A stretch of 48,448 nucleotides of DNA, taken from Candidatus Aenigmatarchaeota archaeon. GTDB taxonomy: Archaea; Aenigmatarchaeota; Aenigmatarchaeia; Aenigmatarchaeales; JAADFI01. The stretch lies in the NCBI GenBank assembly GCA_015521825.1, contig WANL01000001.1:1-48448 (forward strand). Direction: 5' to 3'. Shown here piece by piece: positions 4,722 to 47,905 of this stretch (the first letter of the stretch is position 1; each line of letters begins with the position of its first letter). The notes under the pieces are model-generated. The model was not told where the DNA came from. It saw only the letters and a list, made by a program, of their open reading frames with translations, and made no database searches. The position numbers and the translations under genes are program-made.

Positions 4722-5293
4722 CACCCGTCCCTCCAGGGAACTCCGAACTTCTCCCTGTGGACGATGTCCTTCAGAGGCGCCCTGACCGGCATTTCGGGTT
4801 TTTCCTTCCCGTAGCCGAGGGTGATGATCGCGCACGGTCTCACGTAAGGTGGACACTCCAGGATCATGGAAACCCTGTCCTCGGAGAAGGCCCCGACCCA
4901 GCAGGTGGACAGGCCGAGGGACTCCGCCGCCAGAAGCATGTTCTGGATCGCGGCGGCCACGGACTGAATGCAGTAAAGCCTGACGCCCCTTTCGCCGTAG
5001 GTGGCCGAGGCGATTTTCATGTTGATGCAGGCGACTATGAAAACCGGGGCCTGAAGCATCCAGTCCTGGTTGAAGCACGCCTCGACCAGCATTTTCTTGA
5101 TATTCCCGTCCCTGACGACAACAAACTCCCAGGGCTGACGATTCCCGGCCGAGGGAGCGTACCTGGCAGCGTCCAGAACGGTTTCCAGAAGATCTTCCGG
5201 AACCTGCCCGGACCTGTACTTCCTGACGGACCTTCTGGACTTTATAACGTCCAGGACTCCGGGAGCCTTTTTCCTTTTACCGAACACATTCAC
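4721..5293 (-). CDS. nitroreductase family protein
   Basis: Contains RRSVRKYRSGQVPEDLLETVLDAARYAPSAGNRQPWEFVVV, typical of the NADH oxidase/nitroreductase fold. 190 aa. Confidence 0.85.
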   Translation of the reverse strand: MNVFGKRKKAPGVLDVIKSRRSVRKYRSGQVPEDLLETVLDAARYAPSAGNRQPWEFVVVRDGNIKKMLVEACFNQDWMLQAPVFIVACINMKIASATYGERGVRLYCIQSVAAAIQNMLLAAESLGLSTCWVGAFSEDRVSMILECPPYVRPCAIITLGYGKEKPEMPVRAPLKDIVHREKFGVPWRDG

Positions 5294-24357: not shown

Positions 24358-25941
24358 TCACCTCTCGGACAATCCGAACGCTTCCTGAGGTGTCAGCGCC
24401 CTGTCGAAGATCATAACATCGTCGATCACTGCGGTTCCTGGACTCGTTGCTCCGTCGAAATCACCGACAAACAGCCTCCAGTCTTTGCTCGAAGCCTGCG
24501 GATTTTTGTAGTCGTAGTAAATCTCGCCGCTCTGCTCAATACTTTCGAGCTCCCTTCCGTCGTAGTAAACCGATATATGGGTTCCGTTGTAACTCATCCC
24601 TATCAGGTGCCATTTCCCGTCGTAAAGTCCGGTCGCGTTGGCGTCGATGCATCTGATACCGTTCGTCACTGTGGAGAGGCAAGCACGGATTACATCCTCG
24701 CCCCTACTCTTTGTAACGGCGATGGCCCAGCTTCTCCAGCCGGCCCAGGTGGAATTCGTCGACCTTCTGTTTATTACCCACTTACCGAAGTCCCACGTTT
24801 TATTTATTCTCAGGAAAACGGAAATTTCCTTCTGCGGATCGTACTCCGAAAAGTTATCGACCTGAAGCCAGTCGTCATAGCCGTCGAAACTGATAGCGGT
24901 CCCGCTATACCCTTCGGTCCAGTCCGGGTAGTCCACATCACCATCTATGGTCAAGGGCTGGGCCTGAGTTGCGTGCTCGCAGATGAAATTGTACCAGTTC
25001 CAGCACCTCACATCGTACCAGGTACCTCTGTAGGAGAGGACCGCGCAGTGCTCGGTTCCACCGCCGTTGTTCGGTTCTCCCGTGTTCCAGTTCGTGTAGG
25101 AACTCGTTTCGTTTGGAAGCCACTTCCAGCACCCCGCCGGTTCGTTGGGGCAGCCGTCGGGCCAGCCGTTGTTGTTGCTCAGGTCGTTCCTGTCCTGGTA
25201 GTATCCTATCCACTTCCAGCCTCGACCGGCCAGATTCAGCAGAAACGAATTTTCATTCGAGGAAGAAACAACCGGAATGTAGCCTCCCCTTCTATCACAG
25301 AAGCTCTTCGCTTCTTTCCACCTGGGATATAGCTTCCTGGGATATAGCTTCGGATATAGCTTCAGGGTGTCCATGCACCCCATGTCGATGTACTCGTACC
25401 AGTGGGTGCCGTAGGTTCCGGTTCTGTACACACACTTCCGGTCCTTTAGAAGCAGGTCGATCCTGTTCACGCTGTCCTCGGTGACCAGGCCGCTGCCTTC
25501 GTCGAAACTCCAGAAGGCAATCGCGGATTCGTCGGGTTTTAATCTAACCGACTTCTGAGCAGTAACGGTTCCGGAAGATACCTTTACCGTGTGGGTTCCG
25601 GGAGAAAACCTCCACAGGTCGAGTATCTCCAGCTCTCCTGATTTCGAACTCTGAATGTCCTGCTTTAAGCTAAAGGAAACCGGTGCGCCGTCGACAAATA
25701 CAGAAATTGAATCGTTCGTTATCACGCCGAAGCCGCAGTTTCTGAGGTATATTCTGTTTCCGGAAACCGAATCTATTCTCATGCAGGTGGAGAGCTGCTT
25801 GGTAACCTGCTGAACTTGCTTCTTTCCGGTAGCGGTCAGGCCTCCGGTGGTGGAGGTCGTCCAGGTGTAAATCACGGAAACGAGAGCGATGGTTATGACG
25901 AAAATCATGATAACCGTCAGCACAGCGGACACGCCTTTCAT
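24358..25941 (-). CDS. type IV pilin-like protein fused to a C-type lectin domain (EPN type) and a LamG/Laminin_G_3 domain, 527 aa
   Basis: N-terminus MKGVSAVLTVIMIFVITIALV. CTLD region WKEAKSFCDRRGGYIPVV..WKWIGYYQD..WNTGEPNN..HCAVL..WYDVRC..FICEH. LamG region ISFDGYDDWLQV..GKWHLIGMSYNGTHISVYYDG..IDDVMIFDRALTPQEA. Confidence 0.8.
   Translation of the reverse strand: MKGVSAVLTVIMIFVITIALVSVIYTWTTSTTGGLTATGKKQVQQVTKQLSTCMRIDSVSGNRIYLRNCGFGVITNDSISVFVDGAPVSFSLKQDIQSSKSGELEILDLWRFSPGTHTVKVSSGTVTAQKSVRLKPDESAIAFWSFDEGSGLVTEDSVNRIDLLLKDRKCVYRTGTYGTHWYEYIDMGCMDTLKLYPKLYPRKLYPRWKEAKSFCDRRGGYIPVVSSSNENSFLLNLAGRGWKWIGYYQDRNDLSNNNGWPDGCPNEPAGCWKWLPNETSSYTNWNTGEPNNGGGTEHCAVLSYRGTWYDVRCWNWYNFICEHATQAQPLTIDGDVDYPDWTEGYSGTAISFDGYDDWLQVDNFSEYDPQKEISVFLRINKTWDFGKWVINRRSTNSTWAGWRSWAIAVTKSRGEDVIRACLSTVTNGIRCIDANATGLYDGKWHLIGMSYNGTHISVYYDGRELESIEQSGEIYYDYKNPQASSKDWRLFVGDFDGATSPGTAVIDDVMIFDRALTPQEAFGLSER
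25322..25364 (-). repeat. short tandem repeat (about 13-15-bp unit, 3 copies) encoding KLYP-KLYPR-KLYPR
   Basis: Plus strand reads gggatatagcttcct gggatatagcttc ggatatagcttca, just upstream of the CTLD. The paralog at 42378-44000 has a single LYPDW. Confidence 0.7.
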
Positions 25942-25962
25942 ATTAAAAATTTCCCGGAAGAC

Positions 25963-25972
25963 TAATATAAAG
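25963..25972 (-). promoter_or_regulatory. TATA box for the pilin-lectin gene
   Basis: The minus strand reads ctttatatta, 22-31 nt upstream of the ATG at 25941. This is consistent with a leaderless or very short-leader transcript. Confidence 0.4.
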
Positions 25973-26205
25973 TTATCCGATATCTAAAAGATGGTGAGGA
26001 ATCCGACAGGTCAGTAATCAAAGGACTGAGTAAATTTTTTTCATCTTACTGCCTGAAACTACACCGCGTTTGCTATGGCGGTTGCGGTAATTCGCTGGTA
26101 TCCGGGCGGTCTCAACTTCTGGTAGACCATGTCCAAAAACAAAACCCCTTTACTTGTTTAAAACAAGCATAGGGAGATAATTTCCCATGCTACATAGAAT
26201 TTTAG

Positions 26206-26358
26206 AGGTTATTACAGAAGGTGGATAAGAATTGGATAAAGAGAAGGGAAATGTATAAGCAAAGAGTTAGGGGAGAAGCGATATTTAGCGCTTTATCTAA
26301 TTGGTTTGGAAGTAGATTGAATACCAGAAGAGATGAGGGTTATTTTTGGTTTAAATGA
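26206..26358 (+). pseudogene. possible C-terminal remnant of a DDE (IS4/IS5-like) transposase
   Basis: A 50-codon open stretch ends ..MYKQRVRGEAIFSALSNWFGSRLNTRRDEGYFWFK*. It shows the Y-x2-R-x3-E pattern of DDE transposase C-termini. It lies in a 480-bp AT-rich non-coding gap with no intact upstream part. Confidence 0.3.
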
Positions 26359-26422
26359 TAATTTTCGGACACGACCCCGAACGGGAAAATCTTTTTATTT
26401 TACCTTGAGAATTATTTAAGTA

Positions 26423-27580
26423 ATGGTGCTCGAAACCGGGATAGAAAAGCTGGACAGGCTTCTCGCCGGGAAGCCGGAAAAGAACAGAAAATTTCTGTTT
26501 TTAACAACCCCCGGTATAGACGCACCGGCCTTCGCACAACAGGTCCTTTTCTCCGGGTTAGAAGCCGGGCTGTCAGGTGTCTACCTGGTCTTCAACAAAC
26601 CCCCGGAAGCCGTGAGGGAAACCATGAAAGAGTACCTCTGGGACGTATCTTCGTTCGAGGAATCAGGAAAGCTGACGTTCGTCGACGGGTTCTCTAAACT
26701 CGCGAATTCTGAAACCGGCGAAAAATTCGTGTGCAATCCGAAGAATCCTGACGAACTGATCAGTGCTACCATGGATGCCCTTAAGTCGGTTGGGGAAACG
26801 AAAATAGTGGTGGTTGACGAGATTTCCAACCTCGTCGATCTGATAGGGACCGAAGAAACCGAGCGCTTCATAGAGAAACTCAATTCCGAATCCTCTGTCC
26901 TGGGAATCTTCACCAACTGGCTCTACCCGGAAGAAACCGTGAACTCCGTTAAGGCGGTTTTCGATGAGATCGTCGAACTCAAAGCCGTGGAGGAAAAGGT
27001 CATCCTCAGAAACTACCTTTACATAGAAGGTAGGGCGGTGCCGTTTAAAATCGCGAAACCCGGCGGAATAAACATATACATTCCGAAAATCCTGGTCACC
27101 GGTCCGTACCACGCCGGAAAGAGCACCATAGTCAAAAACCTGAGCGACAGGTCGGTATCGGTGAACCGTCTCGGAACCACTATAGCCCTGGACCACGGCT
27201 ACGTTGAAATGGAAGGGTTCACCTGCGAACTCTTCGGTACCCCGGGCCAGGAAAGATTCGACTTCATCCTTTCCATACTCGCGAAGGACGTTTTCGGGGT
27301 CATCTTGGTCGTGGATTCAACGCTTCCGGAAAGCTTTCCGAGGGCCAAAAACATGCTTTCCAAGGTCAGAGGATACGGAATTCCCTTCGTGGTGATCGCA
27401 AACAAGCAGGATCTCCCGGAGGCCTTACCGCCCGAGGAGGTCAAAAGGCTCCTCGGAGTAGAGGCCCCGGTAATACCGGGTGTGGCGACAGAGGGCAAAG
27501 GTCTGAGGGAAGCCCTGAAGGAGCTGTTCAAACTCATACTGAAAGGTGGTGAGAATGGGAAAGAAGGAGGAAATAGATAA
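26423..27580 (+). CDS. fusion: degenerate KaiC/RecA-like domain (no Walker A) plus MglA/COG2229-type small GTPase
   Basis: N-terminal half TGIEKLDRLLAG..FLFLTTPGIDAPAF aligns with the neighbouring KaiC-like GIPGLDELLEGG..LLSGGPGTGKTTF but lacks GxxGxGKT. IVVVDEIS is kept. C-terminal half has G1 GPYHAGKST, G3 FGTPGQ and G4 NKQD. Confidence 0.75.
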   Translation: MVLETGIEKLDRLLAGKPEKNRKFLFLTTPGIDAPAFAQQVLFSGLEAGLSGVYLVFNKPPEAVRETMKEYLWDVSSFEESGKLTFVDGFSKLANSETGEKFVCNPKNPDELISATMDALKSVGETKIVVVDEISNLVDLIGTEETERFIEKLNSESSVLGIFTNWLYPEETVNSVKAVFDEIVELKAVEEKVILRNYLYIEGRAVPFKIAKPGGINIYIPKILVTGPYHAGKSTIVKNLSDRSVSVNRLGTTIALDHGYVEMEGFTCELFGTPGQERFDFILSILAKDVFGVILVVDSTLPESFPRAKNMLSKVRGYGIPFVVIANKQDLPEALPPEEVKRLLGVEAPVIPGVATEGKGLREALKELFKLILKGGENGKEGGNR

Positions 27581-27923
27581 CATACTGAAAGAGCTGAACC
27601 AGAGCAGTCCCAGCATAAAAGCCTCCCTGCTCGCCAGGGTTGATGGACTGGTGATACACAGCAGGTTGATGGAAGGGGTGGACGGAAGAAGTCTCGCGGC
27701 GATGACGGCGACAATAGTGGGAACGGCCCAGACGATCTCGAAGGAGCTGGAACAGGGGAAGCTGAACCAGGTGATCGTGGAGAGCGAGAACGGAAAGCTC
27801 GTCTCCATAAACGCCGGTAAGCTCGCGATCCTCAGCTGCCTGGTGGATCCGAACGCCAACCTCGGTTTCGTGCTTCTGGAGATGGGGAAGGCCGCGAAAA
27901 AGCTCGAGGAGATCCTGGAGTAA
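27555..27923 (+). CDS. Roadblock/LC7 (MglB-like) domain protein
   Basis: About 120 aa with ..ASLLARVDGLVIHS..AAMTATIVGTAQTISKEL..VIVESENGKLVSINAGK.. The ATG at 27555 follows GGTGGTGA. Confidence 0.75.
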   Translation: MGKKEEIDNILKELNQSSPSIKASLLARVDGLVIHSRLMEGVDGRSLAAMTATIVGTAQTISKELEQGKLNQVIVESENGKLVSINAGKLAILSCLVDPNANLGFVLLEMGKAAKKLEEILE

Positions 27924-27977
27924 AGTATTTAAAACGTTCGCCCCAAACTTTATGGTAGTAAAGTTAGGGGGGCGAAC

Positions 27978-28346
27978 ATGGTTTCGGAATCCGAACTCAG
28001 GGAGATTCTCGAAGAGTTCGTGAAATCCGCAGGAGTCATAGGCGCGGCCATAGTTTCGAACGAGGGTTTGATGATGTGCTCCCTGTTACCCGAAGACTCG
28101 GATCCCAACCTCGTGGCCGCTATGTCGGCTTCCCTGTTCGGAACTTCCAGGAAGGTCGTGGAGGAACTGAATCTGGGCCCGCTCCAGCAGGCCATAGTCG
28201 AGGCAAGGGAAGGCAAGCTGGTTGCCTGCTCCGCCGGTAAGTACGGAATTCTGGTCTCCCTTGTGCCGCACACGACCAACATCGGCCTTGTGATCCTGGA
28301 ACTCGGGAAAACCAGCGAGAGGATCAGAAGACTTCTGGAAGAGTAA
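27978..28346 (+). CDS. Roadblock/LC7 (MglB-like) domain protein
   Basis: 122 aa with ..GVIGAAIVSNEGLMMCS..AAMSASLFGTSRKVVEEL..AIVEAREGKLVACSAGK.. It is a paralog of the previous gene. Confidence 0.75.
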   Translation: MVSESELREILEEFVKSAGVIGAAIVSNEGLMMCSLLPEDSDPNLVAAMSASLFGTSRKVVEELNLGPLQQAIVEAREGKLVACSAGKYGILVSLVPHTTNIGLVILELGKTSERIRRLLEE

Positions 28347-29027
28347 TCAGATGAAGACCTCTTCCTTCGAAAAGACCTCGATTCCTCCGGGGCCGATTCT
28401 TACCGGGTGGAGTCTGGTGGAGTGGTTCGTGCCCCTCATCTTTAAGATTGAAAGCACCCTTGTGTACATGTTGCCTTCCATGACTCTCCTGAGAACGACG
28501 ATCCCGTCCGACACGAACTCCTCGACCCCGTAGGGTGAAACCGAGTCAGAGCCTTCCGGAATCTCGCAGGAAATTATAGAGGTGGCTCCTGTTTTCTTCA
28601 GTTGCTTCCCCAGTTCCACGAGACCCTTCCTTATCTCCAGGGGGTGCTCCAGGAACATTCCGAGAATCGTGGCCGGATCTATGACTATCCTCCTGGCGTT
28701 CAGCCGGAGAACGTTCTCCTCGATCACGGACCTGAGACTTGAAAAATCGTAAAGGTCCAGGCGGACCACGTCCATTTTTCCGGACTTTATCTGCTTTCCG
28801 ACCTTCCAGCCGAACCTTTCCGAGTTTCTCACGATCTGCTCCGGCTCCTCCTCGAGGGAGATGAAAACACCGGGCTCGCCGGAAAGTGATCCGTGGTAAA
28901 TGTAGGAAAGGCCGAAGGTTGTTTTCCCCGTGCCCGGACCTCCCGACAGGAGGATTAGGGAACCGGAAGGAAAGCCGCCTTCCAAAAGCTCGTCCAGGCC
29001 GGGAATCCCGGTGGAAACCCTTTCCAT
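28347..29027 (-). CDS. single-domain KaiC-like RecA-superfamily ATPase
   Basis: Contains GIPGLDELLEGGFPSGSLILLSGGPGTGKTTFGLSY, Walker B RIVIDP and the C-terminal ILKMRGTNHS..HPVRIGPGGIEV. Confidence 0.85.
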   Translation of the reverse strand: MERVSTGIPGLDELLEGGFPSGSLILLSGGPGTGKTTFGLSYIYHGSLSGEPGVFISLEEEPEQIVRNSERFGWKVGKQIKSGKMDVVRLDLYDFSSLRSVIEENVLRLNARRIVIDPATILGMFLEHPLEIRKGLVELGKQLKKTGATSIISCEIPEGSDSVSPYGVEEFVSDGIVVLRRVMEGNMYTRVLSILKMRGTNHSTRLHPVRIGPGGIEVFSKEEVFI

Positions 29028-29061
29028 AAAATTTTTATAAGACCGGGCGAATAAATAGTTT

Positions 29062-29409
29062 ATGATGAATCTTTTCGAGCTGATCCTGGTTTACTCTTCC
29101 ATAGGGTTTGCCGTGCTTTCCGTGGTTTTCATCTACCTCTCCCTTAATCTAACCAGGGAAGCGGTCAGAAAGAAAATGCTGGCCTCGATATTCAACCTCA
29201 GATTCAGGCAGTTCGAAAGGTTCTGGAAGTGGGTCTTCCTCCTTCCGTTTATAATAATAATCTCGAGGTCGGTCGAACTGATAAAGGAGATCCAGGGCCT
29301 CGAGTTCATAAACGGGGCCTACAGGATTTTCGACTTCATAATAATATTCATAATTTTCGTCCTCACGATATCCTACTACTTTATCCTGAAAACCTACATG
29401 AAGTCTTAA
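29062..29409 (+). CDS. small three-TM membrane protein, function unknown
   Basis: 115-aa hydrophobic ORF, AT-richer than its surroundings. Confidence 0.4.
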   Translation: MMNLFELILVYSSIGFAVLSVVFIYLSLNLTREAVRKKMLASIFNLRFRQFERFWKWVFLLPFIIIISRSVELIKEIQGLEFINGAYRIFDFIIIFIIFVLTISYYFILKTYMKS

Positions 29410-30203
29410 AGGAGCAGCGTGAGGAGAAGGGCCAGCGGGAACACCGGGCCGTACCTTACCCCGTCCCGAACTGTAACGAACTTCCTGACTCTTTTAAGTC
29501 TCGATACCTCTTCCTCGGTCAGACCTTTTATGTATTTCTTGAACACACCGGCTTCCGGAACGTCCTCACCTATCACATCGCCTTTCTTGAGCCTCGAGAC
29601 CGGTATCCGCCTGTAAAATCCGTAAGCCTCGACCGCCCTGGCGAAGCGAATCGCAAATGGCGACAGGGCCAGGAGGATCCCTACCGCGAGGAACAGCGGA
29701 CTTTCAAGGACGAAGGATGCGAGGCCGAAAGCGGTAAGAAACACCGAAGCTGTGAAGAGATCCTTTCCCCGATTCCTCCTGACCGAAGCTCCGAACTCCC
29801 TCCAGACCCTGGGGTTTTTTCTGGTAACCACAGCGGAATAGACCAGGGAGTAGATACCGCCGACCAGGAAAACATTCAGGAAAAATAGCGGTGTGAACAG
29901 CGGTGTCAGGAAGCCTACGGGCAGGAGAACGCCGATGGCGACGAGGAGCTCGCCGTCCCCGCCTCCCCACGAGCCCGTGTAGTACATCAGAAGACCGAAC
30001 GTCAGGAAAAGGAGTCCGGTACCGGCCGAAAGCAGGAAGGGAAGGGGATCGCCCAGGAGGAAGGACTCGTAAGCGTGGATCCCGAGGCCGAAAATTATCA
30101 TTCCTATCGCGAGGGCATCCAGCATGTCGCTCGTTTTCAGATCGTAAAGGGCGCAGGCCGTACTCCCACCGAGGGCAACGGCCAGCTTGACGGCTTCGAA
30201 CAT
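29406..30203 (-). CDS. A24-family archaeal prepilin/preflagellin peptidase (FlaK/PibD/EppA-like) with C-terminal extension
   Basis: Start re-picked to MFEAVKLAV (ATG at 30203). First catalytic Asp context is ALYDLKTSD and the second is WGGGDGELL (GxGD). Multi-TM. The extra C-terminal part is RIPVSRLKKGDVIGEDV.. Confidence 0.75.
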   Translation of the reverse strand: MFEAVKLAVALGGSTACALYDLKTSDMLDALAIGMIIFGLGIHAYESFLLGDPLPFLLSAGTGLLFLTFGLLMYYTGSWGGGDGELLVAIGVLLPVGFLTPLFTPLFFLNVFLVGGIYSLVYSAVVTRKNPRVWREFGASVRRNRGKDLFTASVFLTAFGLASFVLESPLFLAVGILLALSPFAIRFARAVEAYGFYRRIPVSRLKKGDVIGEDVPEAGVFKKYIKGLTEEEVSRLKRVRKFVTVRDGVRYGPVFPLALLLTLLL

Positions 30204-33592: not shown

Positions 33593-34051
33593 TTAAGAGC
33601 AGGTTAGACCTTCTTCAACCGCACCCAGAGGACCGGCGATTCTCAGCGTCCTCGTGACCTTCGTGTCCCCCGGAGCAGTCTGATAGTTTATGTTCTTGGT
33701 CTCCCCGGTCTTGATTCCGACCGCTGAGAGGCTCGGTGTCGTCTTTGCGGTTATGTCCTCGCCGTCAAGGAACGCCCGAAGGTCTCCTGGTTCGATGTCA
33801 ACGGTTCCGATGTTCCTCAGTGTAAAGTTGATGGCATTGACGTTCGAAACGTTAGTGCACTTACTATTGATTATGATGACCTGCTTTCCCGCCGACTGCT
33901 GGAGCTGCTGTGCCTGCTGACTTCCTCCGGCCTGCATCCCTGTGACCATAGTGGTACTCCAGGCCCAGAGTATTCCCACCAGCGCCACCGCAATCACTAC
34001 GATCATTATCACTGCGATCACTGTCGATATACCTTTGCTGCTTCCCTTCAA
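33593..34051 (-). CDS. archaeal type IV pilin (Pilin_N-type class III signal peptide), 152 aa
   Basis: TTG start 4-5 nt after GAGGTGA. N-terminus is KGSSKGISTVIAVIMIVVIAVALVGIL, followed by a beta-sandwich-like region similar to the stalk of the pilin-lectin proteins. Confidence 0.7.
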   Translation of the reverse strand: MKGSSKGISTVIAVIMIVVIAVALVGILWAWSTTMVTGMQAGGSQQAQQLQQSAGKQVIIINSKCTNVSNVNAINFTLRNIGTVDIEPGDLRAFLDGEDITAKTTPSLSAVGIKTGETKNINYQTAPGDTKVTRTLRIAGPLGAVEEGLTCS

Positions 34052-34211: not shown

Positions 34212-34613
34212 TTATTTCAGGGCTGTCATCAGCGTCTTCACTCCGGTGCAGTTCGTGACGACCCTTACCTGGCTGACATCGGCCCTGTTAACCGGGAGGG
34301 GTTCGGAAATCACGGTTCCCAGAGTACCCGGAGCCACCGAAGAATTCAGAACATCCCTTAGGTGCAGAACGGTTGCGTTCTGGAGCACGACCTCGAACAC
34401 GAATCCCCCGAGCGGCGCACCGCTCACCTCCACGACCGCCTTTATAGAACCGGAATCGTACTTCGGAAAGCCGGATATGAACCTTATCGAAGCATCGCAG
34501 TTCGGTCTTTCCGGGGCCGGAACCTTGGAGGTAAGGGCGGCGAGAAAGGCGGCGAGAATCATGGTGAGAATTATCAAAAACACGGTCATTCCGAGAGGGC
34601 TCATCCCCTTCAT
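34212..34613 (-). CDS. pilin-like protein (class III signal peptide)
   Basis: ATG at 34613 gives MKGMSPLGMTVFLIILTMILAAFLAAL. Confidence 0.55.
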   Translation of the reverse strand: MKGMSPLGMTVFLIILTMILAAFLAALTSKVPAPERPNCDASIRFISGFPKYDSGSIKAVVEVSGAPLGGFVFEVVLQNATVLHLRDVLNSSVAPGTLGTVISEPLPVNRADVSQVRVVTNCTGVKTLMTALK

Positions 34614-34654
34614 CGAAAGCACCTAAAAATTATCTTTTTCGGCGCCATATAAAG

Positions 34655-36255: not shown

Positions 36256-37473
36256 CTATTTCTTTCTCCTTCCTCTCTTTAAAATCTTTGCCGGGTACTG
36301 AACCGGATTCTTTATCCCGCGGCAGACGTCGTCCGGTCTGCAGATTCCGAGGGAGCCGATGAAAAGTTCGTTGGAACACCCGGGCGGCAGAAGTCTCCTG
36401 CTCTGCCTGAGGTGCCACTTGAGCTGGGTTCTGATGGTGTTTTCCCTGAGAGGGGGTCTGTTTCTCGAGTTCCAGTTTTCGAGAGCCGACTCTATTTCCT
36501 TGGCAGACCAGCCGGAAGATCTTAAGAACGTAACGAGGGTGAAGATAGACCTCTTCCTTCCGTCCGAAAGCCCGGAGAGAATGTTCTTGATACACGGGGG
36601 GAACGCGCTTTCCGGCACCTTCACCCCGGCGGTGTGCCTGACCCCGGTCTTCGGTTTTTTCTTCGGCAGGAAGGCCGAGGCCTCGTCCACAAGGGTAGAG
36701 GCGTCCCCGGACCCGGAAAATTCGAGAGAGAGATCGGCGTTCTCGGGTCTGGCCGATTCCGGATCGAAGGAGAGCGGATCCCTGACCGGAACGGAAACGA
36801 GCAGAGTCTTGTGGTGTATTGTGTAGGGTGCCCTGAACAGGTGCCGGGAACCCCAGTTCGACTCTATTTCTACCGCCTCGAAGGCGGAGAATTTTTCAAA
36901 CCCTCCTATCGCTCTGGAAAGGGAAGCGTAGCCGCCTTCGAAGGAAGCGAGCCTCTCCAGGATTTCTTTATCCACCTTAGACTTAACGAATTCAACTATG
37001 GCCCTCGGAAGCTCTGGGTACAGAGACGCCGTGGGTCTGAGGTCCACGGACTCCGGAAAGCAGGAAAAAGGGATGAAAATGTGAAAGCCCCTTCTCCCGG
37101 AAAACTTGACCCCGGCCTTTATTCCGAAATCCGAGAGGAACTCGAGGACGGCGGAGGCCGCGATCTTGGAGTGCTCGAGACTGAACTTCGCGTCTATGTC
37201 GATGAGAAGGTCCCATCCGATCCTCAGTTCATCGAGTTCCTCGGCCTTCATCTCGCTTTTCAGCCTCAGCGGGTCCTTCCAGAGCTCGACTGAACAGTGG
37301 AAGCTGATCACCCCGGACTCCACGCGCTGAATCAGGTCCCCGGGGTATACAAGAGTGTCCGGCCTTTTTAAGAAGGAGCCGTCAGGAAGCGAGCACGCCA
37401 CCTCCCGGTTAGCCGCGAATTCCACTATCCTTCTCGCGACATCCTTCCGCGAATAGTAATCCTTCGGATCCAT
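36256..37473 (-). CDS. priS: DNA primase small subunit PriS fused to a PriL-CTD-like Fe-S helical domain
   Basis: Catalytic core WDLLIDIDAKF, SGRRGFHIFIP. The C-terminal 115 aa or so read FPPCIKNILSGL..RSIFTLVTFLRSSGWS..PPGCS..GICRPDDVCRGIKNPVQY, with four Cys. Confidence 0.8.
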   Translation of the reverse strand: MDPKDYYSRKDVARRIVEFAANREVACSLPDGSFLKRPDTLVYPGDLIQRVESGVISFHCSVELWKDPLRLKSEMKAEELDELRIGWDLLIDIDAKFSLEHSKIAASAVLEFLSDFGIKAGVKFSGRRGFHIFIPFSCFPESVDLRPTASLYPELPRAIVEFVKSKVDKEILERLASFEGGYASLSRAIGGFEKFSAFEAVEIESNWGSRHLFRAPYTIHHKTLLVSVPVRDPLSFDPESARPENADLSLEFSGSGDASTLVDEASAFLPKKKPKTGVRHTAGVKVPESAFPPCIKNILSGLSDGRKRSIFTLVTFLRSSGWSAKEIESALENWNSRNRPPLRENTIRTQLKWHLRQSRRLLPPGCSNELFIGSLGICRPDDVCRGIKNPVQYPAKILKRGRRKK

Positions 37474-42377: not shown

Positions 42378-44000
42378 TCACTCGAGCGAAACCATTTCCT
42401 TCGGATCGACAGCCTCGGAGAGTACCCTCACGAAGTCGAGAACCATCGGAACCTGACCGAACTGGAACTCCTTCACGTAATACGTGTTGCCGTTATCTAC
42501 GACCGGCTTCGAGTAGTTTATGGGCCCGGTCTGCGGAACCGAACCGATCTTATTACCGTCGAAGTAGAGGGAAATCTCGCTTCCGTCGTAGGTCAGGCCC
42601 AGGAGGTGGAACTTCCCGTCATTTAGGTTAATACTCCCGTCTGCGCACCTGTACTCCGAAGTGTAAACACAGGCCTTGGCCAGGGTTCCGTCACCGTAAA
42701 CCTCGATACCGTAAGCCGGGTTCAGGGAATGAGCCGCCCTGTAAGCGATTCTGACGCCCTCCCACCAGTATCCGGTCTTCTTGACCCGGACGAACAGGGA
42801 AACCCGGTTCGGGGGATCGTGATCCTCGGTTATAACGGTCTTTCCACCCGGCCCAGCCTCGGTTTTGAAAAACCCGGCCGAGACAATATCGTCGTAGCCG
42901 GAGAATTTCATTACCCCGTTTTCAATGACCGGGAGCCAGGGGTACCTCAGCTCGGGTCGATCCGGCTTCTGATCGTACTCGCAGATGAATCCCATACCGT
43001 AGGTGCAGTCGGCATCCGTGAAGTTATCGTTTTTCAATCCGCAGTTGGCCGGCGGAAAACCGACCCCGATCAACCGCTCAGCGGCCGAATCAACGTTATC
43101 GGGTTGTCCGCTTTCCCAGTTGAAGTAGGACGACGGTTCGACCGAAAGCCACTTCCAGTCTCCGGCGGGCTCGTTCGCCGAACCGCTCGGAACGGAATCG
43201 GAGTATGTGAGGTCGTTAGGATCCTGGTACAGACCGATCCAGAGACCGTTGGCCCAGTAGGGCATGGAACTGAGTTCGTCCCAGGAGGAGAACACGGCCA
43301 GGTAGCCTCCGTCGTTTTCGCAGAACTTCTTGGCCGAGACCCAGTCCGGATACAGGTTCGGATCTATTTCGTCCAGGCAGCCGTAGGGATACACGATGTA
43401 GTAGCTCGAACCGTAGTTCAGGGGGTCGAGACTCGAAGACCAGCAGGGTCCATCGACTGCGCGGGCGTCAATGCCGTTAACGGTGTCGTAAACGTAGTAG
43501 CGGTAACCGACCACATTTCCCTGAAAGTCGAGCTCGGGAACGGCCGTCCAGTTGTCGTCGAACTCGAAAAAGGCGACCGAGGAGTCCGAAGGCTTTATCT
43601 TCACGAATCTCTGGCTAACGAAGGATCCGGCCGAAATTGTCATGTCGTGATCCCCGACTCCGAAGTCGTAGAGGTTCGTCAGCTCGGCGTAACCGACCTG
43701 GTTGGGCGGAATGTCCCTGCTGAGAGAGTAATCCACGGGCTTTCCGTCTATGAAGATGTTAAGGGTTCCGTTTCTCACGACTCCGGGGCCGCAGTTTCTC
43801 AGATACACCCTGTTTTTCGCTACCTGGTCTATCCTTAGACAGTACATCTGCTCGGCCTGGGTAGTTATCCTCTCCCCGGATTCCCGCATGGTCTTTCCGG
43901 TAACTCCGAAGATCCAGTTTGCCAGAAGGTAGAGCAGGGCAATTGTTACGATTATCACAAGCGTGACGGCAACCGCGGACGAAATTCCCTTCGCGCTCAC
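42378..44000 (-). CDS. type IV pilin-like protein fused to a C-type lectin domain (QPD type) and a LamG/Laminin_G_3 domain, 540 aa
   Basis: GTG start. N-terminus SAKGISSAVAVTLVIIVTIALLYLL. CTLD region WVSAKKFCENDGGYLAVFSS..LWIGLYQD..WESGQPDN..FTDADC..FICEY. LamG region KFSGYDD..GKFHLLGLTYDGSEISLYFDG. Confidence 0.8.
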   Translation of the reverse strand: MSAKGISSAVAVTLVIIVTIALLYLLANWIFGVTGKTMRESGERITTQAEQMYCLRIDQVAKNRVYLRNCGPGVVRNGTLNIFIDGKPVDYSLSRDIPPNQVGYAELTNLYDFGVGDHDMTISAGSFVSQRFVKIKPSDSSVAFFEFDDNWTAVPELDFQGNVVGYRYYVYDTVNGIDARAVDGPCWSSSLDPLNYGSSYYIVYPYGCLDEIDPNLYPDWVSAKKFCENDGGYLAVFSSWDELSSMPYWANGLWIGLYQDPNDLTYSDSVPSGSANEPAGDWKWLSVEPSSYFNWESGQPDNVDSAAERLIGVGFPPANCGLKNDNFTDADCTYGMGFICEYDQKPDRPELRYPWLPVIENGVMKFSGYDDIVSAGFFKTEAGPGGKTVITEDHDPPNRVSLFVRVKKTGYWWEGVRIAYRAAHSLNPAYGIEVYGDGTLAKACVYTSEYRCADGSINLNDGKFHLLGLTYDGSEISLYFDGNKIGSVPQTGPINYSKPVVDNGNTYYVKEFQFGQVPMVLDFVRVLSEAVDPKEMVSLE

Positions 44001-44033: not shown

Positions 44034-46208
44034 TTACCTTGTGAGAATGTAGGTCTCGGCGTAGCCTCTGTCGGTCACAACCGCTACCTTGTACCTTTCG
44101 TTCTTTTCGAGGGAGGCGTTTACCGTGAGCGTGAAGCCTCCGTCCGGACCGGTGAGGGTATAATTCCTGTAGAGCCAGGGCGCGTCCTCGGTGCAGTAGA
44201 CAACATCCGGCTTACAGACGAAGAGGGAAACCGGAATGTTCGGAACCGGTGTCATGTTTGAAGAAAGGGCGTAGGCGGAAACCGAAATTATGTAAGGATA
44301 AACGTTCGGAACTATTCTAAAGGAAAGGATGGAGGTTCCGAAAGTGTCGGGATAGCCCGTTGTCTTGACTATTCTCACGTAATAGGTTCCGGGGTCTGCG
44401 GTGAAGGTGAGGGAGGCGTTGCTCCTCGTGTAGTTAACGAGCTCCCAGGTGGAATTGTCCCCGTCAGTGTCTACGAAAATCGTGTAGTTGTCGATGTACT
44501 CGAGCGTGGCCTCCATTTCGGCGGAATCGATGTAAAACGCACCGTTGAATCCGTTGTAGCTCAGGTCGAACCTTATTCTGACCTCGGAGTCCGGTACGCT
44601 AAAGGTCGAGGGATCGAGGTCTATTACAACCGGTCGGAATTCCTTGGAGGAGTTTACAGAAGTTACCTGCCCGGCTTTTGTCCCGTTGACAAAAACGCTT
44701 ATCGAAGTTACGTTGGTCAAAAATCCTGTGCCGTTGTCCGAAAGGAACAGCGTTACTCTGGCGCTCTTCACCCTCACCTGAGAATCCGGATACGCCTTAG
44801 CGACCGGGTTGAAGGGAATCTCGATTCCGTTGAACCGAACCGGCTGGGACATCTCGAAGTACGCGAGCTGGCCCGGTCTGGCCGCTACGGACCAAGCGGT
44901 TCTGACCTCAAGCACACCCCTTCCGGAAACATCGTCCCTAATGCTTTTCATCCCGAGAGTCGACGGGTCCTTAAAACTTTCGTGAATGTTAACGGCAGCG
45001 AACCTCCACTTTTTATCCGCGTAAAGCGGGGTGGAATATCTCTTTTTGTCCGGGTAAAAGTAGGGGTTCCCGAAAAGTTTGAACGCTGAAACCGGGGATT
45101 CCTTCGGAGAGGAGGTCAGGTTCCTGGTGGACGGAAGCGGTGAAATCGTTACGGTCACGTTGGAAGGCACCGTTATATTGTAAACTATAACCTTCGAGCA
45201 CTCGTCTGCACAGGACGGATCGAAACAGTCTATCCTTCCGTCGAAATTGTCGTCTAGTCCGTCCCTGCAGTTCTTTTCCTTCCTGTAGCACCCGACGGTA
45301 TTGTAAACACTCCCTCCCGGAGTCACCGCCCCACACTCCGCGGTGTACCACTCAACACCGAACGGTTTTTTACAACAGTAAGCGTAATTCGGATCGTTCG
45401 GATCCACCGCACAACCTTCGCCATCGGGGCAGGTCTCAGTAGGACTGTAAGATATTCTTACTATTTTCCATTTATTATTCCAGTAGAAGCTGGTGTAACC
45501 TACTCCCGGAGAAGACTGGCTTCCGCCGACAGCGCAGACAGTCCCATCTGGCTCGCCCTCGCAGGCTCTTTCCCTCGGTTTACACTTCCCGTTGACCCAG
45601 GCGCAGGCAGCGGTCTGAAGACACTGCTCGTAAGTGAAATCCGAGCAGTTCACGCGATAGATCCGGAACATTTCTGACTCGGTACACGGAAGCCACTGGT
45701 ACTCAATCCGACCGTCTTCAATTCCGCACGGATAATTTGGATTATAATTCTGCCACCAGTAATCATTGTAATCTGTAATTATATAAACGGGACAATCATT
45801 GTCTCCGGTCCCGAAAACAGTACAGGACTGAGTCACGAAAGTTTTATCCAACCCCCCGTACCTCGCCGTTGTTTTATAAGAAAGCATATTAGCCGGCGCG
45901 CACGGAGCTCCCATTACTTTGTCGATCTCGTATTCACAGTTAGGATCTCTGTGAAAGGATGTTTCAGCTCCCATGGGTTTTTGTAACAAGTAATGAAGGT
46001 AATTTACCTTATTGGGGTCTGTATCCACACACGGATTGGTATACTCACAACACTCTCCGTACGTACAACTGCTAGTAATGTAAGCGCTTCCGTAGTTATC
46101 GTAGCAGTAACCGGAAGTAACCCAGTCACAAACTACGGCATACGAACCTTCGGTGAGTAGGAACAGACCGGTTCCGATGGCAGCCACCAGGAAAATCAAA
46201 GACCTCAT
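44034..46208 (-). CDS. secreted 724-aa protein: Cys-rich N-terminal half, beta-rich C-terminal half
   Basis: Signal peptide MRSLIFLVAAIGTGLFLLTEGSYA. Dozens of Cys lie in the first 340 aa or so, including CRDGLDDNFDGRIDCFDPSC (MopE/TSP3-like metal-binding pattern). Many N-x-S/T sequons. The C-terminus is CarboxypepD_reg-like (YTLTGPDGGFTLTV..YKVAVV). Confidence 0.7.
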   Translation of the reverse strand: MRSLIFLVAAIGTGLFLLTEGSYAVVCDWVTSGYCYDNYGSAYITSSCTYGECCEYTNPCVDTDPNKVNYLHYLLQKPMGAETSFHRDPNCEYEIDKVMGAPCAPANMLSYKTTARYGGLDKTFVTQSCTVFGTGDNDCPVYIITDYNDYWWQNYNPNYPCGIEDGRIEYQWLPCTESEMFRIYRVNCSDFTYEQCLQTAACAWVNGKCKPRERACEGEPDGTVCAVGGSQSSPGVGYTSFYWNNKWKIVRISYSPTETCPDGEGCAVDPNDPNYAYCCKKPFGVEWYTAECGAVTPGGSVYNTVGCYRKEKNCRDGLDDNFDGRIDCFDPSCADECSKVIVYNITVPSNVTVTISPLPSTRNLTSSPKESPVSAFKLFGNPYFYPDKKRYSTPLYADKKWRFAAVNIHESFKDPSTLGMKSIRDDVSGRGVLEVRTAWSVAARPGQLAYFEMSQPVRFNGIEIPFNPVAKAYPDSQVRVKSARVTLFLSDNGTGFLTNVTSISVFVNGTKAGQVTSVNSSKEFRPVVIDLDPSTFSVPDSEVRIRFDLSYNGFNGAFYIDSAEMEATLEYIDNYTIFVDTDGDNSTWELVNYTRSNASLTFTADPGTYYVRIVKTTGYPDTFGTSILSFRIVPNVYPYIISVSAYALSSNMTPVPNIPVSLFVCKPDVVYCTEDAPWLYRNYTLTGPDGGFTLTVNASLEKNERYKVAVVTDRGYAETYILTR

Positions 46209-47905
46209 ATGACCACCCAGGTTTCAGTATCCTTTTTTATTTCTCCCAGCTCCTGAATCTTTCCGGTAGGCGGGATGCAGTAGTAGTATTCCGGCACGCA
46301 CTTCGAAGCCCCGGGAGTGTAAGCAGCGTACGGGCACCATTTACAGCCCTGAGTGTTATCACATACCCTCTTTTTCTCTTCGTCCGTGGTCAGACCTTTT
46401 TCACATGCAGCGCAGTCCCACGCTCCACAACCCCGATCCGGCGGACAAGCCCCGGCCTCCTTACAGCCTATTTGAAAGCCGCACCAGTCGCAGGTGGAGA
46501 AACTCTCGCAGGTCGTCGGGTCCCAGTAATTCTGGCAGCAGTCTTCCGGACAATTCTCCGGAGTCTCGCCATAAGCAGTCTCGCAGATGCCGTTGGGAGT
46601 CCCGGTGAGAGTTCCGGTAGCCGGGTCGTAGCAGGATCCGCACGGCGTGGGCTTACAGGTTCCGGAACACCAGTAACAGCCGGCGTTCTCACAGTCCGTC
46701 TGGGTCTGGCAGTTAACGCAGCTGGAAGCCGTACAGTCGGAAGGAACCGTGCCCGTGGGCTGGCACTTAACGGTTAAACCGGCCGGAAGGGTACACGACT
46801 CCAGCCAGGACTCGCAGTTTATCTTTCTGTCCCGGTAGTAACTCCACCCGTTCGTTTTCGAAGGTCTGCAGGTGAACCTGGTCGGGTCGCTGTTGGTGCA
46901 GGGCGAATCGTCCGTTCCGGTCATGCAGTACAGCCCGTCCGCGCACTCGTCGTTACACTGGCAGACGTCTCCCTCGGTCTTCGCGAACCCGAGGACCTTG
47001 AGGCAGGGATCGCACTTTTCCGTGTCTATCGCGTCCTCGTAACTGCAGATCGGAACGCACTTACCGTTTTCGCACTTGAAATCCGGCGGGCACACGAGCT
47101 TTCCGTAGGAGCACTGCGAATCCCTGGAAGGACAGAAGGCCTCGAGAACGGTCGTGTTGTCGACGCAGTAGTCCGAGATGGTTTGAAGGACTTTGTCTCC
47201 CTCTCCGTACTCGCAGGTACCGGAGGAAAACTTAGTGTCCGGATACAGGCCAGGAACATCTGGAGAATCACTATCGTAGCACCACGGCCACGGTGGGGGT
47301 TCCGACTTTTTACAGAAAAACTTGTGGGTGGAGTTGTAAGATATTTCGTAACCTTCCGGGCATCCGACCTCGACATTAAACCATACCGAAGCGTTTACAG
47401 ACTTTACATTCTTGGGATTTACACAGACGTCCGAGTAAAAAGACCAAGAAGCATCGATTAGCAAAACGGTTCCGGAAGCACCTTTTAAATTATAGGTATA
47501 ATCCGTTGCTGTCCACCTTTCCCATCCTGAAATTAACCCACACCGTTCATTCAGGGGCTGTGGATTTGAAAGACATTCGTAAGTCACCCTGCTCTTAACC
47601 TGTTCATTAACTCCGTTGTTATCCGTGCAGGTAGTTATTCTATGACCAACACCCGTGATTGCGCACCATCCTACGTTATTCTCGTCCCAGTCGCACGGAA
47701 CTTCTACGAGCAATTGACGGGTAAGCGTTGTCTCCTCAGCTGTATCTATAACGTAACAGGTAGCGCCAACGAGAGTTGGATCCGTCGGGGCTCTTTCAAG
47801 AGGGCAGTCGCTCTCCAGACGAACTTGAAGGGTGGTCCCGAAAGCGGGTGGAAACAGTAGTAAAAACCCTATCAGAATTAAAATCAAAGGGGTACCCCTG
47901 TTCAT
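46205..47905 (-). CDS. secreted 566-aa protein, about 10% cysteine, with PSI-like Cys patterns
   Basis: Signal peptide MNRGTPLILILIGFLLLFPPAFG. About 56 Cys by hand count. Contains CTASSCVNCQTQTDCENAGCYWCSGTC and CAACEKG..CDNTQGCKWC (C..C..C...CxWC). ATGA overlap with the downstream 724-aa gene. Confidence 0.7.
   Translation of the reverse strand: MNRGTPLILILIGFLLLFPPAFGTTLQVRLESDCPLERAPTDPTLVGATCYVIDTAEETTLTRQLLVEVPCDWDENNVGWCAITGVGHRITTCTDNNGVNEQVKSRVTYECLSNPQPLNERCGLISGWERWTATDYTYNLKGASGTVLLIDASWSFYSDVCVNPKNVKSVNASVWFNVEVGCPEGYEISYNSTHKFFCKKSEPPPWPWCYDSDSPDVPGLYPDTKFSSGTCEYGEGDKVLQTISDYCVDNTTVLEAFCPSRDSQCSYGKLVCPPDFKCENGKCVPICSYEDAIDTEKCDPCLKVLGFAKTEGDVCQCNDECADGLYCMTGTDDSPCTNSDPTRFTCRPSKTNGWSYYRDRKINCESWLESCTLPAGLTVKCQPTGTVPSDCTASSCVNCQTQTDCENAGCYWCSGTCKPTPCGSCYDPATGTLTGTPNGICETAYGETPENCPEDCCQNYWDPTTCESFSTCDWCGFQIGCKEAGACPPDRGCGAWDCAACEKGLTTDEEKKRVCDNTQGCKWCPYAAYTPGASKCVPEYYYCIPPTGKIQELGEIKKDTETWVVI

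Follow-up and report, generated by a model that had tools for sequence, protein, structure and literature searches.

Archaea have few classical two-component systems, and to our knowledge the control of their surface filaments is still largely unknown. Signalling roles in archaea have been proposed both for pairs of a small GTPase and a Roadblock protein and for KaiC-like ATPases (the latter reportedly as 'signalling hub' ATPases by Makarova et al. 2017, where the term 'iKaiC' is said to have been coined); we know of no case in which members of these two groups have been mechanistically tied to each other. We analysed a cluster of six genes (positions 26423-30203) in a 48,448-nt stretch of DNA, further called the window, which is contig WANL01000001.1 of the Candidatus Aenigmatarchaeota archaeon assembly GCA_015521825.1. 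The first gene encodes a degenerate KaiC-like domain fused to a small GTPase of the MglA type; it is followed by two Roadblock/LC7 genes, a convergent gene for an intact KaiC-like ATPase, a gene for a small protein with three transmembrane segments (3-TM protein) and a gene for an A24-family prepilin peptidase (Table 1). On balance, we think it probable that the cluster represents, in one lineage, a widespread archaeal module in which an MglA-type switch would be docked on KaiC-type ATPases.

The MglA/MglB system has been described in Myxococcus xanthus and Thermus thermophilus; in Myxococcus this switch controls type IV pilus polarity (PMC4316618). As in the cluster, a Ras-like GTPase with the G3 motif xxPGQ, without the usual Asp, is encoded beside a Roadblock-fold regulator. 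The cluster differs from MglA/MglB in the GTPase signature (GTPGQ with Thr-Thr, whereas group 1 has TVPGQ and an intrinsic Arg finger), in the fusion to a dead KaiC domain (385 aa), in having two Roadblock paralogues, in the absence of the RomR/Frz context and in its archaeal host. Actinobacterial conservons (CvnA kinase, CvnB, CvnC/DUF742, CvnD) also combine a GTPGQ-class GTPase and a Roadblock protein in an operon with an ATP-binding signalling protein; Roadblock 1 of the cluster matches CvnB5, and some relatives of the module adjoin PAS-histidine kinases. Unlike the conservons, the cluster carries no histidine kinase or DUF742 gene, its ATP-binding partner has the KaiC/RecA fold, its GTPase is fused to a partner-like domain, and the distribution is archaeal.

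The likeness to the archaeal KaiC-like hubs is twofold: an intact single-domain KaiC stands by type IV pilus-type genes, and a degenerate KaiC is used as a fusion module. The intact KaiC is unlike ArlH, as it scores 31 bits with the NF052589 model (cut-off 215); arl genes are missing from the 48-kb window, and profiles of the pilus assembly ATPase (T2SSE) and of TadC (T2SSF) have no match there. It has the fold and all the catalytic motifs of cyanobacterial KaiC (Walker A GGPGTGKT, the LEEE Glu pair, Walker B RIVID and the KMRG finger), with solved structures of KaiC and PH0186 matched at 1e-66 and 1.5e-44, respectively. Unlike the cyanobacterial protein, it is a single 226-aa domain with no CI-CII tandem (172.7 bits with the circadian models, cut-off 408); neither KaiA nor KaiB was found near it, and nothing in the cluster suggests timekeeping. 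Finally, in the eukaryotic and Asgard Ragulator-Rag and TRAPP complexes Roadblock dimers dock or regulate a small GTPase; V4R/Bet3-like genes occur in operons of the module's relatives, and the presence of two distinct Roadblock paralogues suggests a heterodimer like that of LAMTOR2/3. Unlike those complexes, the cluster shows no evidence of membrane trafficking, its GTPase is of the MglA class rather than Rag or Rab, and its KaiC component has no counterpart there. Seen against these systems, the cluster would be an MglA/MglB-type switch hard-wired to KaiC-fold proteins.

The table of open reading frames (ORFs) of the window, whose boundaries were matched by independent public gene calls on identical contigs, contains all six genes listed in the preliminary description, at the same positions and with the same domains. 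The degenerate KaiC and GTPase fusion, the two Roadblocks, the convergent intact KaiC, the 3-TM protein and the A24 peptidase were each borne out; the overlap of 26 nt claimed between the GTPase gene and Roadblock 1 is exactly 26 nt with an ATG start.

At least 1336 protein clusters match the window fusion at E-value ≤1e-5, and the best 120 of them are all 357-426 aa long with both domains present. The architecture of ~390 aa was found in at least 592 archaeal species-representative genomes and in at least 594 metagenome stretches. Carriers among the matches listed include Micrarchaeota, Aenigmatarchaeota, Nano- and Woesearchaeota, Altiarchaeota, Bathyarchaeia, Methanosarcinales (with ANME-2 and Methanoperedens), Methanocellales, Methanobacteriaceae, Archaeoglobaceae, Alkanophagales, Hydrothermarchaeales and Thermoplasmatota. 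Among the fetched loci, the closest relatives of the window fusion are in L001 (74% identical) and L173 (63% identical; the L numbers designate the fetched loci). The metagenome matches, which include no relative of the window fusion above 45% identity, were used as a replicate census. The window contig itself recurs in hydrothermal metagenome assemblies, with a Candidatus Micrarchaeota genome as the closest named relative.

To characterize the gene neighbourhood, ORFs were called in all fetched loci and labelled by profiles made from the window proteins and from the fusion-family alignment. De-duplication at 90% identity produced 130 fusion clusters, 98 of them with at least 1 kb on both sides. 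We observed a Roadblock gene within 300 bp of the fusion gene in 76 of these 98 loci and within 2.5 kb in 89; for a KaiC-like gene the numbers were 70 and 79, respectively. Both partners were present within 2.5 kb in 70 loci, and not a single locus (0/98) was left with neither. In the genome-only first subset a Roadblock neighbour was seen in 57 of 69 loci, as was a KaiC-like neighbour. Given these linkage counts, the GTPase / Roadblock / KaiC-like set is a conserved module. A functional module of this composition had been proposed in the preliminary description, with a lack of conserved linkage in related genomes named as the observation that would speak against it; the census, which spans many archaeal phyla, found the linkage kept.

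The usual gene order is KaiC-like, fusion, Roadblock, on one strand, with the genes abutting or overlapping; in Methanobacteriaceae the order is Roadblock, fusion and two KaiC-like genes. A Roadblock start overlapping the fusion gene, as in the window, is also present in the Archaeoglobaceae loci. Among the 148 nearest neighbour genes of the other genome loci the recurrent Pfam families were YhbY (12), V4R (10), S19e (9) and HhH-GPD (8), and sensor-type neighbours (PAS, HAMP, FIST, V4R or histidine-kinase genes) accompany the module in other lineages. In three loci with Nano/Woesearchaeota-type fusions (L088, L090 and L091) the module is situated inside long same-strand operons that hold HAMP, FIST and PAS proteins and a second Roadblock; the L088 operon adds a metallo-beta-lactamase-fold protein, and L090 and L091 have a TrmB regulator upstream. 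In their predicted gene content these operons resemble a multi-input signalling pathway.

Residues 4-190 of the fusion protein match the Pfam KaiC model PF06745 (E-value 1.4e-18), and the profile of the whole family matches KaiC, PH0186 and PH0284 at ~1e-29. At the P-loop position, where GxxGxGK[ST] is expected, the window protein has PGIDAPAF. The Walker A position reads PG[IV][DE]xxxF, without Lys-Ser/Thr, in all 119 aligned members of the family; the catalytic Glu pair and the Lys/Arg finger KxRG are missing family-wide as well, and the Walker B Asp is not conserved. The AlphaFold model of the domain (pLDDT 89, pTM 0.77) has a TM-score of 0.83 to the hexameric RecA-superfamily ATPase PH0284. 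Judging by the alignment and the predicted model, this domain keeps the KaiC fold only, with its catalytic motifs lost. The inter-domain junction PGG-x-x-Y-IPKILVTGP is almost invariant and belongs to the best conserved stretches of the family, which suggests a rigid rather than a loose coupling of the two domains.

The second part of the fusion (residues 219-370) matches small-GTPase models: Arf at 2e-13, Ras at 1e-9 and TIGR00231 at 5e-17. Its motifs are intact: G1 GPYHAGKS (227), TT (252-253), G3 GTPGQ (272), G4 NKQD (327) and VAT. Across the 119 family members T252, T253, G272, T273 and G275 are invariant and Q276 is nearly so; the G1 motif and NKxD are also invariant across the family. 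The best match by sequence among solved structures is T. thermophilus MglA (2.2e-14), followed by Arf-like proteins and Myxococcus MglA at ~1e-10. It is known that MglA groups 2-5, which include archaeal group 4 and the GTPases of actinobacterial conservons, carry the signature GTPGQ (no Asp in G3) together with a Thr in place of the Arg beside the G2 Thr (PMC4316618). The earlier assignment to the MglA type agrees with the Thermus MglA match and with these two hallmarks, GTPGQ and Thr-Thr. The fusion GTPase has the sequence features and the gene context of groups 2-5 and departs from them in not being a single-domain protein (385 aa versus ≤240 aa). The MglA-family survey (Wuichet and Sogaard-Andersen 2014) dropped proteins longer than 240 aa and reported no conserved neighbours for archaeal group 4 (PMC4316618), which is why the fusion was not described there. 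In the searchable literature, which did not cover Makarova et al. 2017 (a paper that may well list it), we found no account of the iKaiC-GTPase fusion or of the triad; the term iKaiC occurs in PMC5847659. The literature searched held nothing suggesting experimental work on the fusion family.

The Arg residue of the motif V-x-R-L-G-T-T, R249, is near-invariant across the family and is situated three residues before the G2 threonines. We considered it as an MglA-like intrinsic arginine finger and rejected it, as the published position is directly beside the G2 Thr, where the fusion has a Thr.

The two Roadblock proteins of the window are 39% identical to each other. Roadblock 1 has a mean identity of 39% to the Roadblocks of other loci, and Roadblock 2 of 31%. 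Roadblock 1 contains V-D-G-L, in agreement with the family consensus r-D-G-L, where Roadblock 2 has N-E-G-L instead; an Asp-Gly pair has been reported for the MglB partners of group 2-5 GTPases (PMC4316618). Among solved structures Roadblock 1 matches Roadblock protein 9jue at 1e-15, CvnB5 (3leq) at 1.4e-5 and MglB at 0.01. By these comparisons, Roadblock 1 is the orthologue of the single Roadblock beside the fusion in most archaea, and Roadblock 2 is a divergent paralogue. Surplus Roadblock copies are also present in the closest relatives L001, L173 and L085.

As its KaiC-like partner the fusion usually has a separate protein, likewise degenerate, which is missing from the window and was overlooked in the preliminary description. 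It matches the DUF7504 and DUF7090 models, and KaiC weakly; the Glu pair and the arginine finger are missing in all its variants. Its Walker A motif depends on the lineage: GK[ST]; GK[ED] in Methanosarcinales and relatives; GxEK[FLVM] in Micrarchaeia. In Methanosarcinales, ANME-2 and Methanoperedens the motif reads GPPMSGK[ED], with an acidic residue for Ser/Thr, and in Micrarchaeia GPPGxEK[FLVM]. These motif losses suggest that the degenerate partner is itself a weak or dead ATPase. Canonical KaiC of the window type was found within 5 kb of the fusion in 26 of the 98 loci; it is directly adjacent in Bathyarchaeia (in the order KaiC, fusion, Roadblock) and near the fusion in several DPANN-type loci. 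The window and L001 are unusual in having no degenerate partner, surplus Roadblocks and canonical KaiC only.

The 3-TM protein had no family match in Pfam and NCBIfam scans. Its homologues were found only in L001 and L173 (in two tandem copies, 49% and 42% identical), each beside an orthologue of the intact KaiC; the KaiC orthologue in L173 is 61% identical and adjoins pilus assembly genes. A full search among 1.8 billion proteins gave one other representative of the 3-TM protein, and a word-indexed search gave no relative. The A24 peptidase scores 34.5 bits with Peptidase_A24 (cut-off 26.5 bits) and has the catalytic-type motifs D21 and GGGD80; its match to the FlaK model (5e-10) is below that model's cut-off. 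Iterated searches of 79 genome loci for the 3-TM protein and the A24 peptidase returned only the close relative L001. Homologues of these two proteins thus occur in close relatives only, and there is no family-wide link of either one to the module. The 3-TM protein is apparently a lineage-restricted partner of the intact KaiC.

We propose the following mechanism. GTP would be bound via the canonical G1, G4 and G5 motifs and hydrolysed with the help of the conserved Gln276. The GTPase, like those of MglA groups 2-5, appears to have no intrinsic arginine finger; stimulated hydrolysis and/or exchange would then depend on Roadblock, as in MglA/MglB and the conservons. A Roadblock dimer, acting as a GTPase-activating protein or as a guanine-nucleotide exchange factor, may speed or reset the GTPase in the manner of MglB or CvnB; it could consist of two copies of Roadblock 1 or pair Roadblock 1 with Roadblock 2, the two paralogues permitting an asymmetric heterodimer. 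The GTPase would be covalently and rigidly joined to a KaiC/RecA-fold domain predicted to be unable to bind or split ATP. Such a dead domain would most likely be a docking piece that places the GTPase in or on KaiC-type ring assemblies. In most archaea the partner in the ring may be the degenerate KaiC-like protein of the adjacent gene; here the intact KaiC (28347-29027) would be the sole available partner, whose ATPase or phosphorylation state could be coupled to the GTP/GDP state of the switch. The module may be generic in its output across lineages. For the lineage of the window the leading candidate output, held tentatively and at rather less than even confidence, is control of type IV pilus assembly or adhesion; it leads because the only KaiC at hand pairs with a membrane protein and a prepilin peptidase. 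The scheme builds on observed domain identities, motif states and gene linkage; the action of Roadblock on the GTPase, the docking of the dead domain on KaiC and the output are inferred.

Archaeal pilin (class III) signal peptides were identified in four genes of the window (starting at 24358, 33593, 34212 and 42378). The gene upstream of the fusion and divergent from it encodes a pilin N-terminus (signal MKG/VSAVLTVIMIF) followed by C-type lectin and LamG domains; it is not kept upstream of the fusion in L001. A paralogue with the same three parts is present in the window (Table 1), and the two lectin pilins are candidate sugar-binding adhesive pilins of what is probably a host-dependent archaeon. 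Next to GatD there are two short pilin-like genes, with the signals MKGSSKG/ISTVIAV and MLSMKG/MSPLGMTVF.

Loci with pilus genes near the module come from about seven lineages, mostly of DPANN type, and have differing gene orders. L088, whose fusion is a Nanoarchaeota protein going by its source name, encodes a LamG protein and four pilins, then T2SSE and two T2SSF proteins, and, after a gap of 134 nt and without change of strand, the fusion. In L085 T2SSE, two T2SSF genes and a pilin gene precede KaiC and the fusion, which are divergent from each other; Roadblocks and the degenerate partner come next. In L087 the set T2SSE, KaiC, T2SSF, T2SSF is located 4 kb from the module; this canonical KaiC is inside the pilus operon, between T2SSE and the two T2SSF genes, which is reminiscent of ArlH, though the locus is not an archaellum locus. 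L089 and L002 (Micrarchaeia) show the fusion, the degenerate partner, Roadblock, KaiC, six pilins of the MR[AG]Q type and assembly genes, while L022 has assembly genes and KaiC ~4-6 kb upstream of the fusion. In L173 T2SSE, T2SSF and T2SSF stand beside the tandem 3-TM homologues and the KaiC orthologue, and 3.9 kb separate this set from the genes for the fusion, Roadblock and V4R. The pilus-linked fusions are 36-53% identical to one another and thus represent separate lineages. In each pilus-positive case canonical KaiC either separates the pilus genes from the fusion or adjoins the former; in the window clade the intact KaiC and the 3-TM protein are always beside pilus biogenesis genes. Canonical KaiC, joined by the 3-TM protein in the window clade, is the element recurrently common to pilus loci and module, in agreement with the report of KaiC-family and Roadblock genes in archaeal pilus loci (Makarova et al. 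2016, PMC4858521).

Several observations weigh against a KaiC-docked switch with a pilus output. The window has no degenerate stand-alone partner of the kind typical of most lineages. Its KaiC gene is convergent and so is not co-transcribed with the GTPase gene, and the distance between fusion and KaiC orthologue in L173, where the latter is beside a pilus operon, implies that KaiC may be a separate unit. Of the 89 de-duplicated loci that have a flank of 8 kb or more, only six are matched by the T2SSE/T2SSF profiles, all six from DPANN-type or unnamed lineages; the 46 metagenome loci that are 6 kb or longer give no match, nor does any euryarchaeal or Bathyarchaeia locus. Close relatives of the pilus-linked fusions (L015, L007 and L091) have no pilus genes nearby. 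The adjacency of the A24 peptidase is kept in L001 only, where synteny extends through UppS and GatE/D; this adjacency is thus not independent evidence and may be plain inherited gene order.

The main rival explanation takes the KaiC / 3-TM / A24 genes and the fusion / Roadblock genes as mere neighbours. There would be two unrelated units: a self-contained switch of fusion and Roadblocks, with the dead domain associating with itself, and a pilus accessory unit of KaiC and the 3-TM protein, perhaps with the A24 peptidase. It is with the 3-TM gene, rather than the GTPase operon, that the convergent KaiC gene has a putative promoter region (34 nt, divergent) in common; in L173 four opposite-strand genes separate the KaiC / 3-TM pair from the fusion, and family-wide the partner belongs to a different, degenerate KaiC-like class. 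Against two units stand the absence of any locus lacking both Roadblock and KaiC-like genes, the presence of canonical KaiC within 5 kb in about a quarter of the loci (26/98), with direct adjacency in Bathyarchaeia, L085, L089 and L090, and the fact that the window offers the dead domain no other KaiC-like gene. We regard this explanation as serious and yet doubtful.

It has also to be considered that the cluster in its entirety might be dedicated to regulating how type IV pili are assembled or positioned, as an archaeal counterpart of MglA/MglB (or SofG) that would act on the pilus motor, with an ArlH-like KaiC. The A24 gene at 0.4 kb from KaiC, the four pilin genes within 48 kb, the pilus genes near diverged fusions in L088, L085, L087, L089, L002 and L173, and the known co-occurrence of KaiC-family and Roadblock genes with archaeal pilus loci (PMC4858521) would all fit. 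However, hundreds of genomes keep the module with no pilus gene nearby, and pilus families are missing among the 25 most frequent neighbour families in the Pfam scan of the 148 nearest genes. The DPANN loci L090, L091 and L092 have no pilus genes and carry PAS, HAMP, FIST or V4R genes instead; the rarity of T2SSE/T2SSF genes across the loci and the window's own lack of a pilus ATPase and TadC point the same way. We consider a dedicated pilus regulator unlikely. The enrichment of pilus genes near the module is best taken as modest, as counted without a chance baseline. The proposal in the preliminary description that the cluster may control the surrounding pilins is thus supported in part: a pilus-related role is plausible in the lineage of the window. 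As judged from gene neighbourhoods, it is not a family trait.

The favoured reading, an MglA-type switch docked on KaiC-type ATPases, can be widened: a KaiC-fold ring would display MglA/Arf-like switches set by Roadblock dimers, with a V4R subunit in a sixth of the loci, and would link a KaiC cycle driven by ATP or phosphorylation to a GTP switch; this machine would be a pre-eukaryotic relative of the Ragulator/TRAPP platforms, and in DPANN symbionts it would gate lectin-tipped type IV pili for host attachment. We offer this as speculation, and rather a long shot. Less probable still is a membrane- or vesicle-directed GTPase platform, a prokaryotic analogue of complexes of Roadblock/longin and Bet3-like proteins (TRAPP or Ragulator type). 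It would agree with the V4R gene following Roadblock in 16 of the 98 loci (L173 included), with the best solved matches of Roadblock 1 being stand-alone Roadblock-domain proteins and not MglB, and with Arf-type GTPases as the best profile matches of the G domain. Still, a V4R gene is missing from the window, the V4R domain is also plainly a sensor of small ligands, and no feature of the loci indicates membrane remodelling.

V4R is related to Bet3/TRAPPC3 (PMC3791482, PMC10933270); the V4R paper holds no gene-context data. In the 16 de-duplicated loci counted above the V4R gene is within 3 kb of the fusion; it comes just after Roadblock in most of the loci given in Table 1 and just before it in L164. 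Operons with GTPase, Roadblock and V4R genes occur in Euryarchaeota, Bathyarchaeia and DPANN, and a 2024 Asgard study states that such genes are generally not together in operons there.

An anti-phage defence system or mobile-element cargo is very unlikely, next to negligible in our estimate: compact NTPase-rich clusters are typical of defence islands and PADLOC gave one weak match for KaiC (mad8, 4e-5, 21 bits), but the defence-system models gave nothing meaningful, with no PADLOC match for the fusion, both Roadblocks, the 3-TM protein or the A24 peptidase, the neighbours across lineages are housekeeping genes in stable synteny, and the composition profile has no clear change confined to the cluster.

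Table 1. Coordinates of the cluster, of other features of the window and of selected features in related loci (window positions unless a locus is named).
Feature	Coordinates	Strand	Basis or remark
TATA-like A/T-rich box CTTTTTATTTTA	26391..26402	+	Centre ~27 nt 5' of fusion ATG; read from sequence
Fusion gene, 385 aa	26423..27580	+	KaiC-like and small GTPase domains
Degenerate KaiC/RecA-like domain ('iKaiC') of fusion, residues 1 to ~212	26423..27058	+	Pfam KaiC
MglA-family small GTPase domain of fusion, residues ~213-385	27059..27580	+	TIGR00231, Arf
Codon of R249	27167..27169	+	
Roadblock/LC7 protein 1, 122 aa	27555..27923	+	Robl_LC7, E-value 1.3e-14
Roadblock/LC7 protein 2, 122 aa, divergent paralogue	27978..28346	+	Robl_LC7, E-value 6e-16
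Intact single-domain KaiC-like ATPase, 226 aa	28347..29027	-	PF06745, E-value 3.9e-63, 213 bits
Divergent intergenic region KaiC / 3-TM gene, 34 nt	29028..29061		Two A/T-rich boxes
Small membrane protein (3-TM), 115 aa, three hydrophobic segments	29062..29409	+	Hydropathy
A24-family prepilin/preflagellin peptidase, 265 aa	29406..30203	-	Peptidase_A24
Pilin N-terminus + C-type lectin + LamG gene, divergent from fusion, 480-nt gap	24358..25941	-	Lectin_C 2e-13, Laminin_G_3 1.5e-8, Pilin_N 0.0017
Paralogous lectin pilin	42378..44000	-	
Gap between lectin pilin and fusion, 480 nt	25942..26422		
Short pilin-like gene (signal MKGSSKG/ISTVIAV)	33593..34051	-	
Short pilin-like gene (signal MLSMKG/MSPLGMTVF)	34212..34622	-	
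ORF with asparagine-synthase-like domain	3420..5078	-	
405-aa primase-like protein	36256..37473	-	
724-aa protein, Cys-rich	44034..46208	-	No Pfam match
566-aa protein	46205..47905	-	No Pfam match
Degenerate partner, examples (many more exist)	L016 9260..9997; L010 2515..3216; L023 5789..6493; L029 11134..11793		
V4R gene beside Roadblock	L011 8860..9462; L173 10151..10651; L093 11550..12170; L130 7396..8001; L138 5079..5666; L164 3255..3863		
Long same-strand operons with module	L088 9938..17215; L090 7111..13182; L091 9219..14188		
Canonical KaiC inside pilus operon	L087 9647..10357		

The A/T-rich box upstream of the fusion gene is, by the usual archaeal TATA spacing, the putative promoter of a transcription unit of fusion, Roadblock 1 and Roadblock 2. 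At the other end of this unit the stop codons of Roadblock 2 and KaiC are convergent and 0 nt apart. Each of the two A/T-rich boxes between KaiC and the 3-TM gene is centred ~27 nt from one of the two start codons, an arrangement consistent with back-to-back promoters of leaderless mRNAs. Rfam and tRNA scans gave nothing relevant within the cluster.

The remaining genes of the window are housekeeping genes (SecY, ArgRS, PEP synthase, GatD/E, UppS and primase). The primase-like protein matches small-subunit, large-subunit and PriCT models and is apparently a fused PriS-PriL primase; another single ORF combines the asparagine-synthase-like domain with a HhH-GPD DNA glycosylase domain. The two proteins of 724 and 566 aa, encoded next to the second lectin pilin, have hydrophobic, signal-peptide-like N-termini. 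The gap between the first lectin pilin and the fusion is G+C-rich at ~26040-26130 in A/T-rich surroundings and has no Rfam match.

The fusion family joins GTPase and KaiC-like elements in one polypeptide, and its association with the partner genes is conserved in most archaeal phyla. Cultivable methanogens and Archaeoglobi are, by lineage, among its carriers, and thus the coupling can be tested by biochemistry and genetics. Operons of GTPase and Roadblock genes, sometimes with V4R, outside of Asgard bear on the origin of eukaryotic Arf-type GTPases and of Roadblock/longin regulators. It is this breadth of the family, its testability and the non-Asgard GTPase / Roadblock / V4R operons, rather than adjacency to pilus genes, that make up the main interest of the finding. 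For the organism itself, the cluster is a candidate regulator of the lectin-bearing pili with which a host-dependent archaeon probably attaches.

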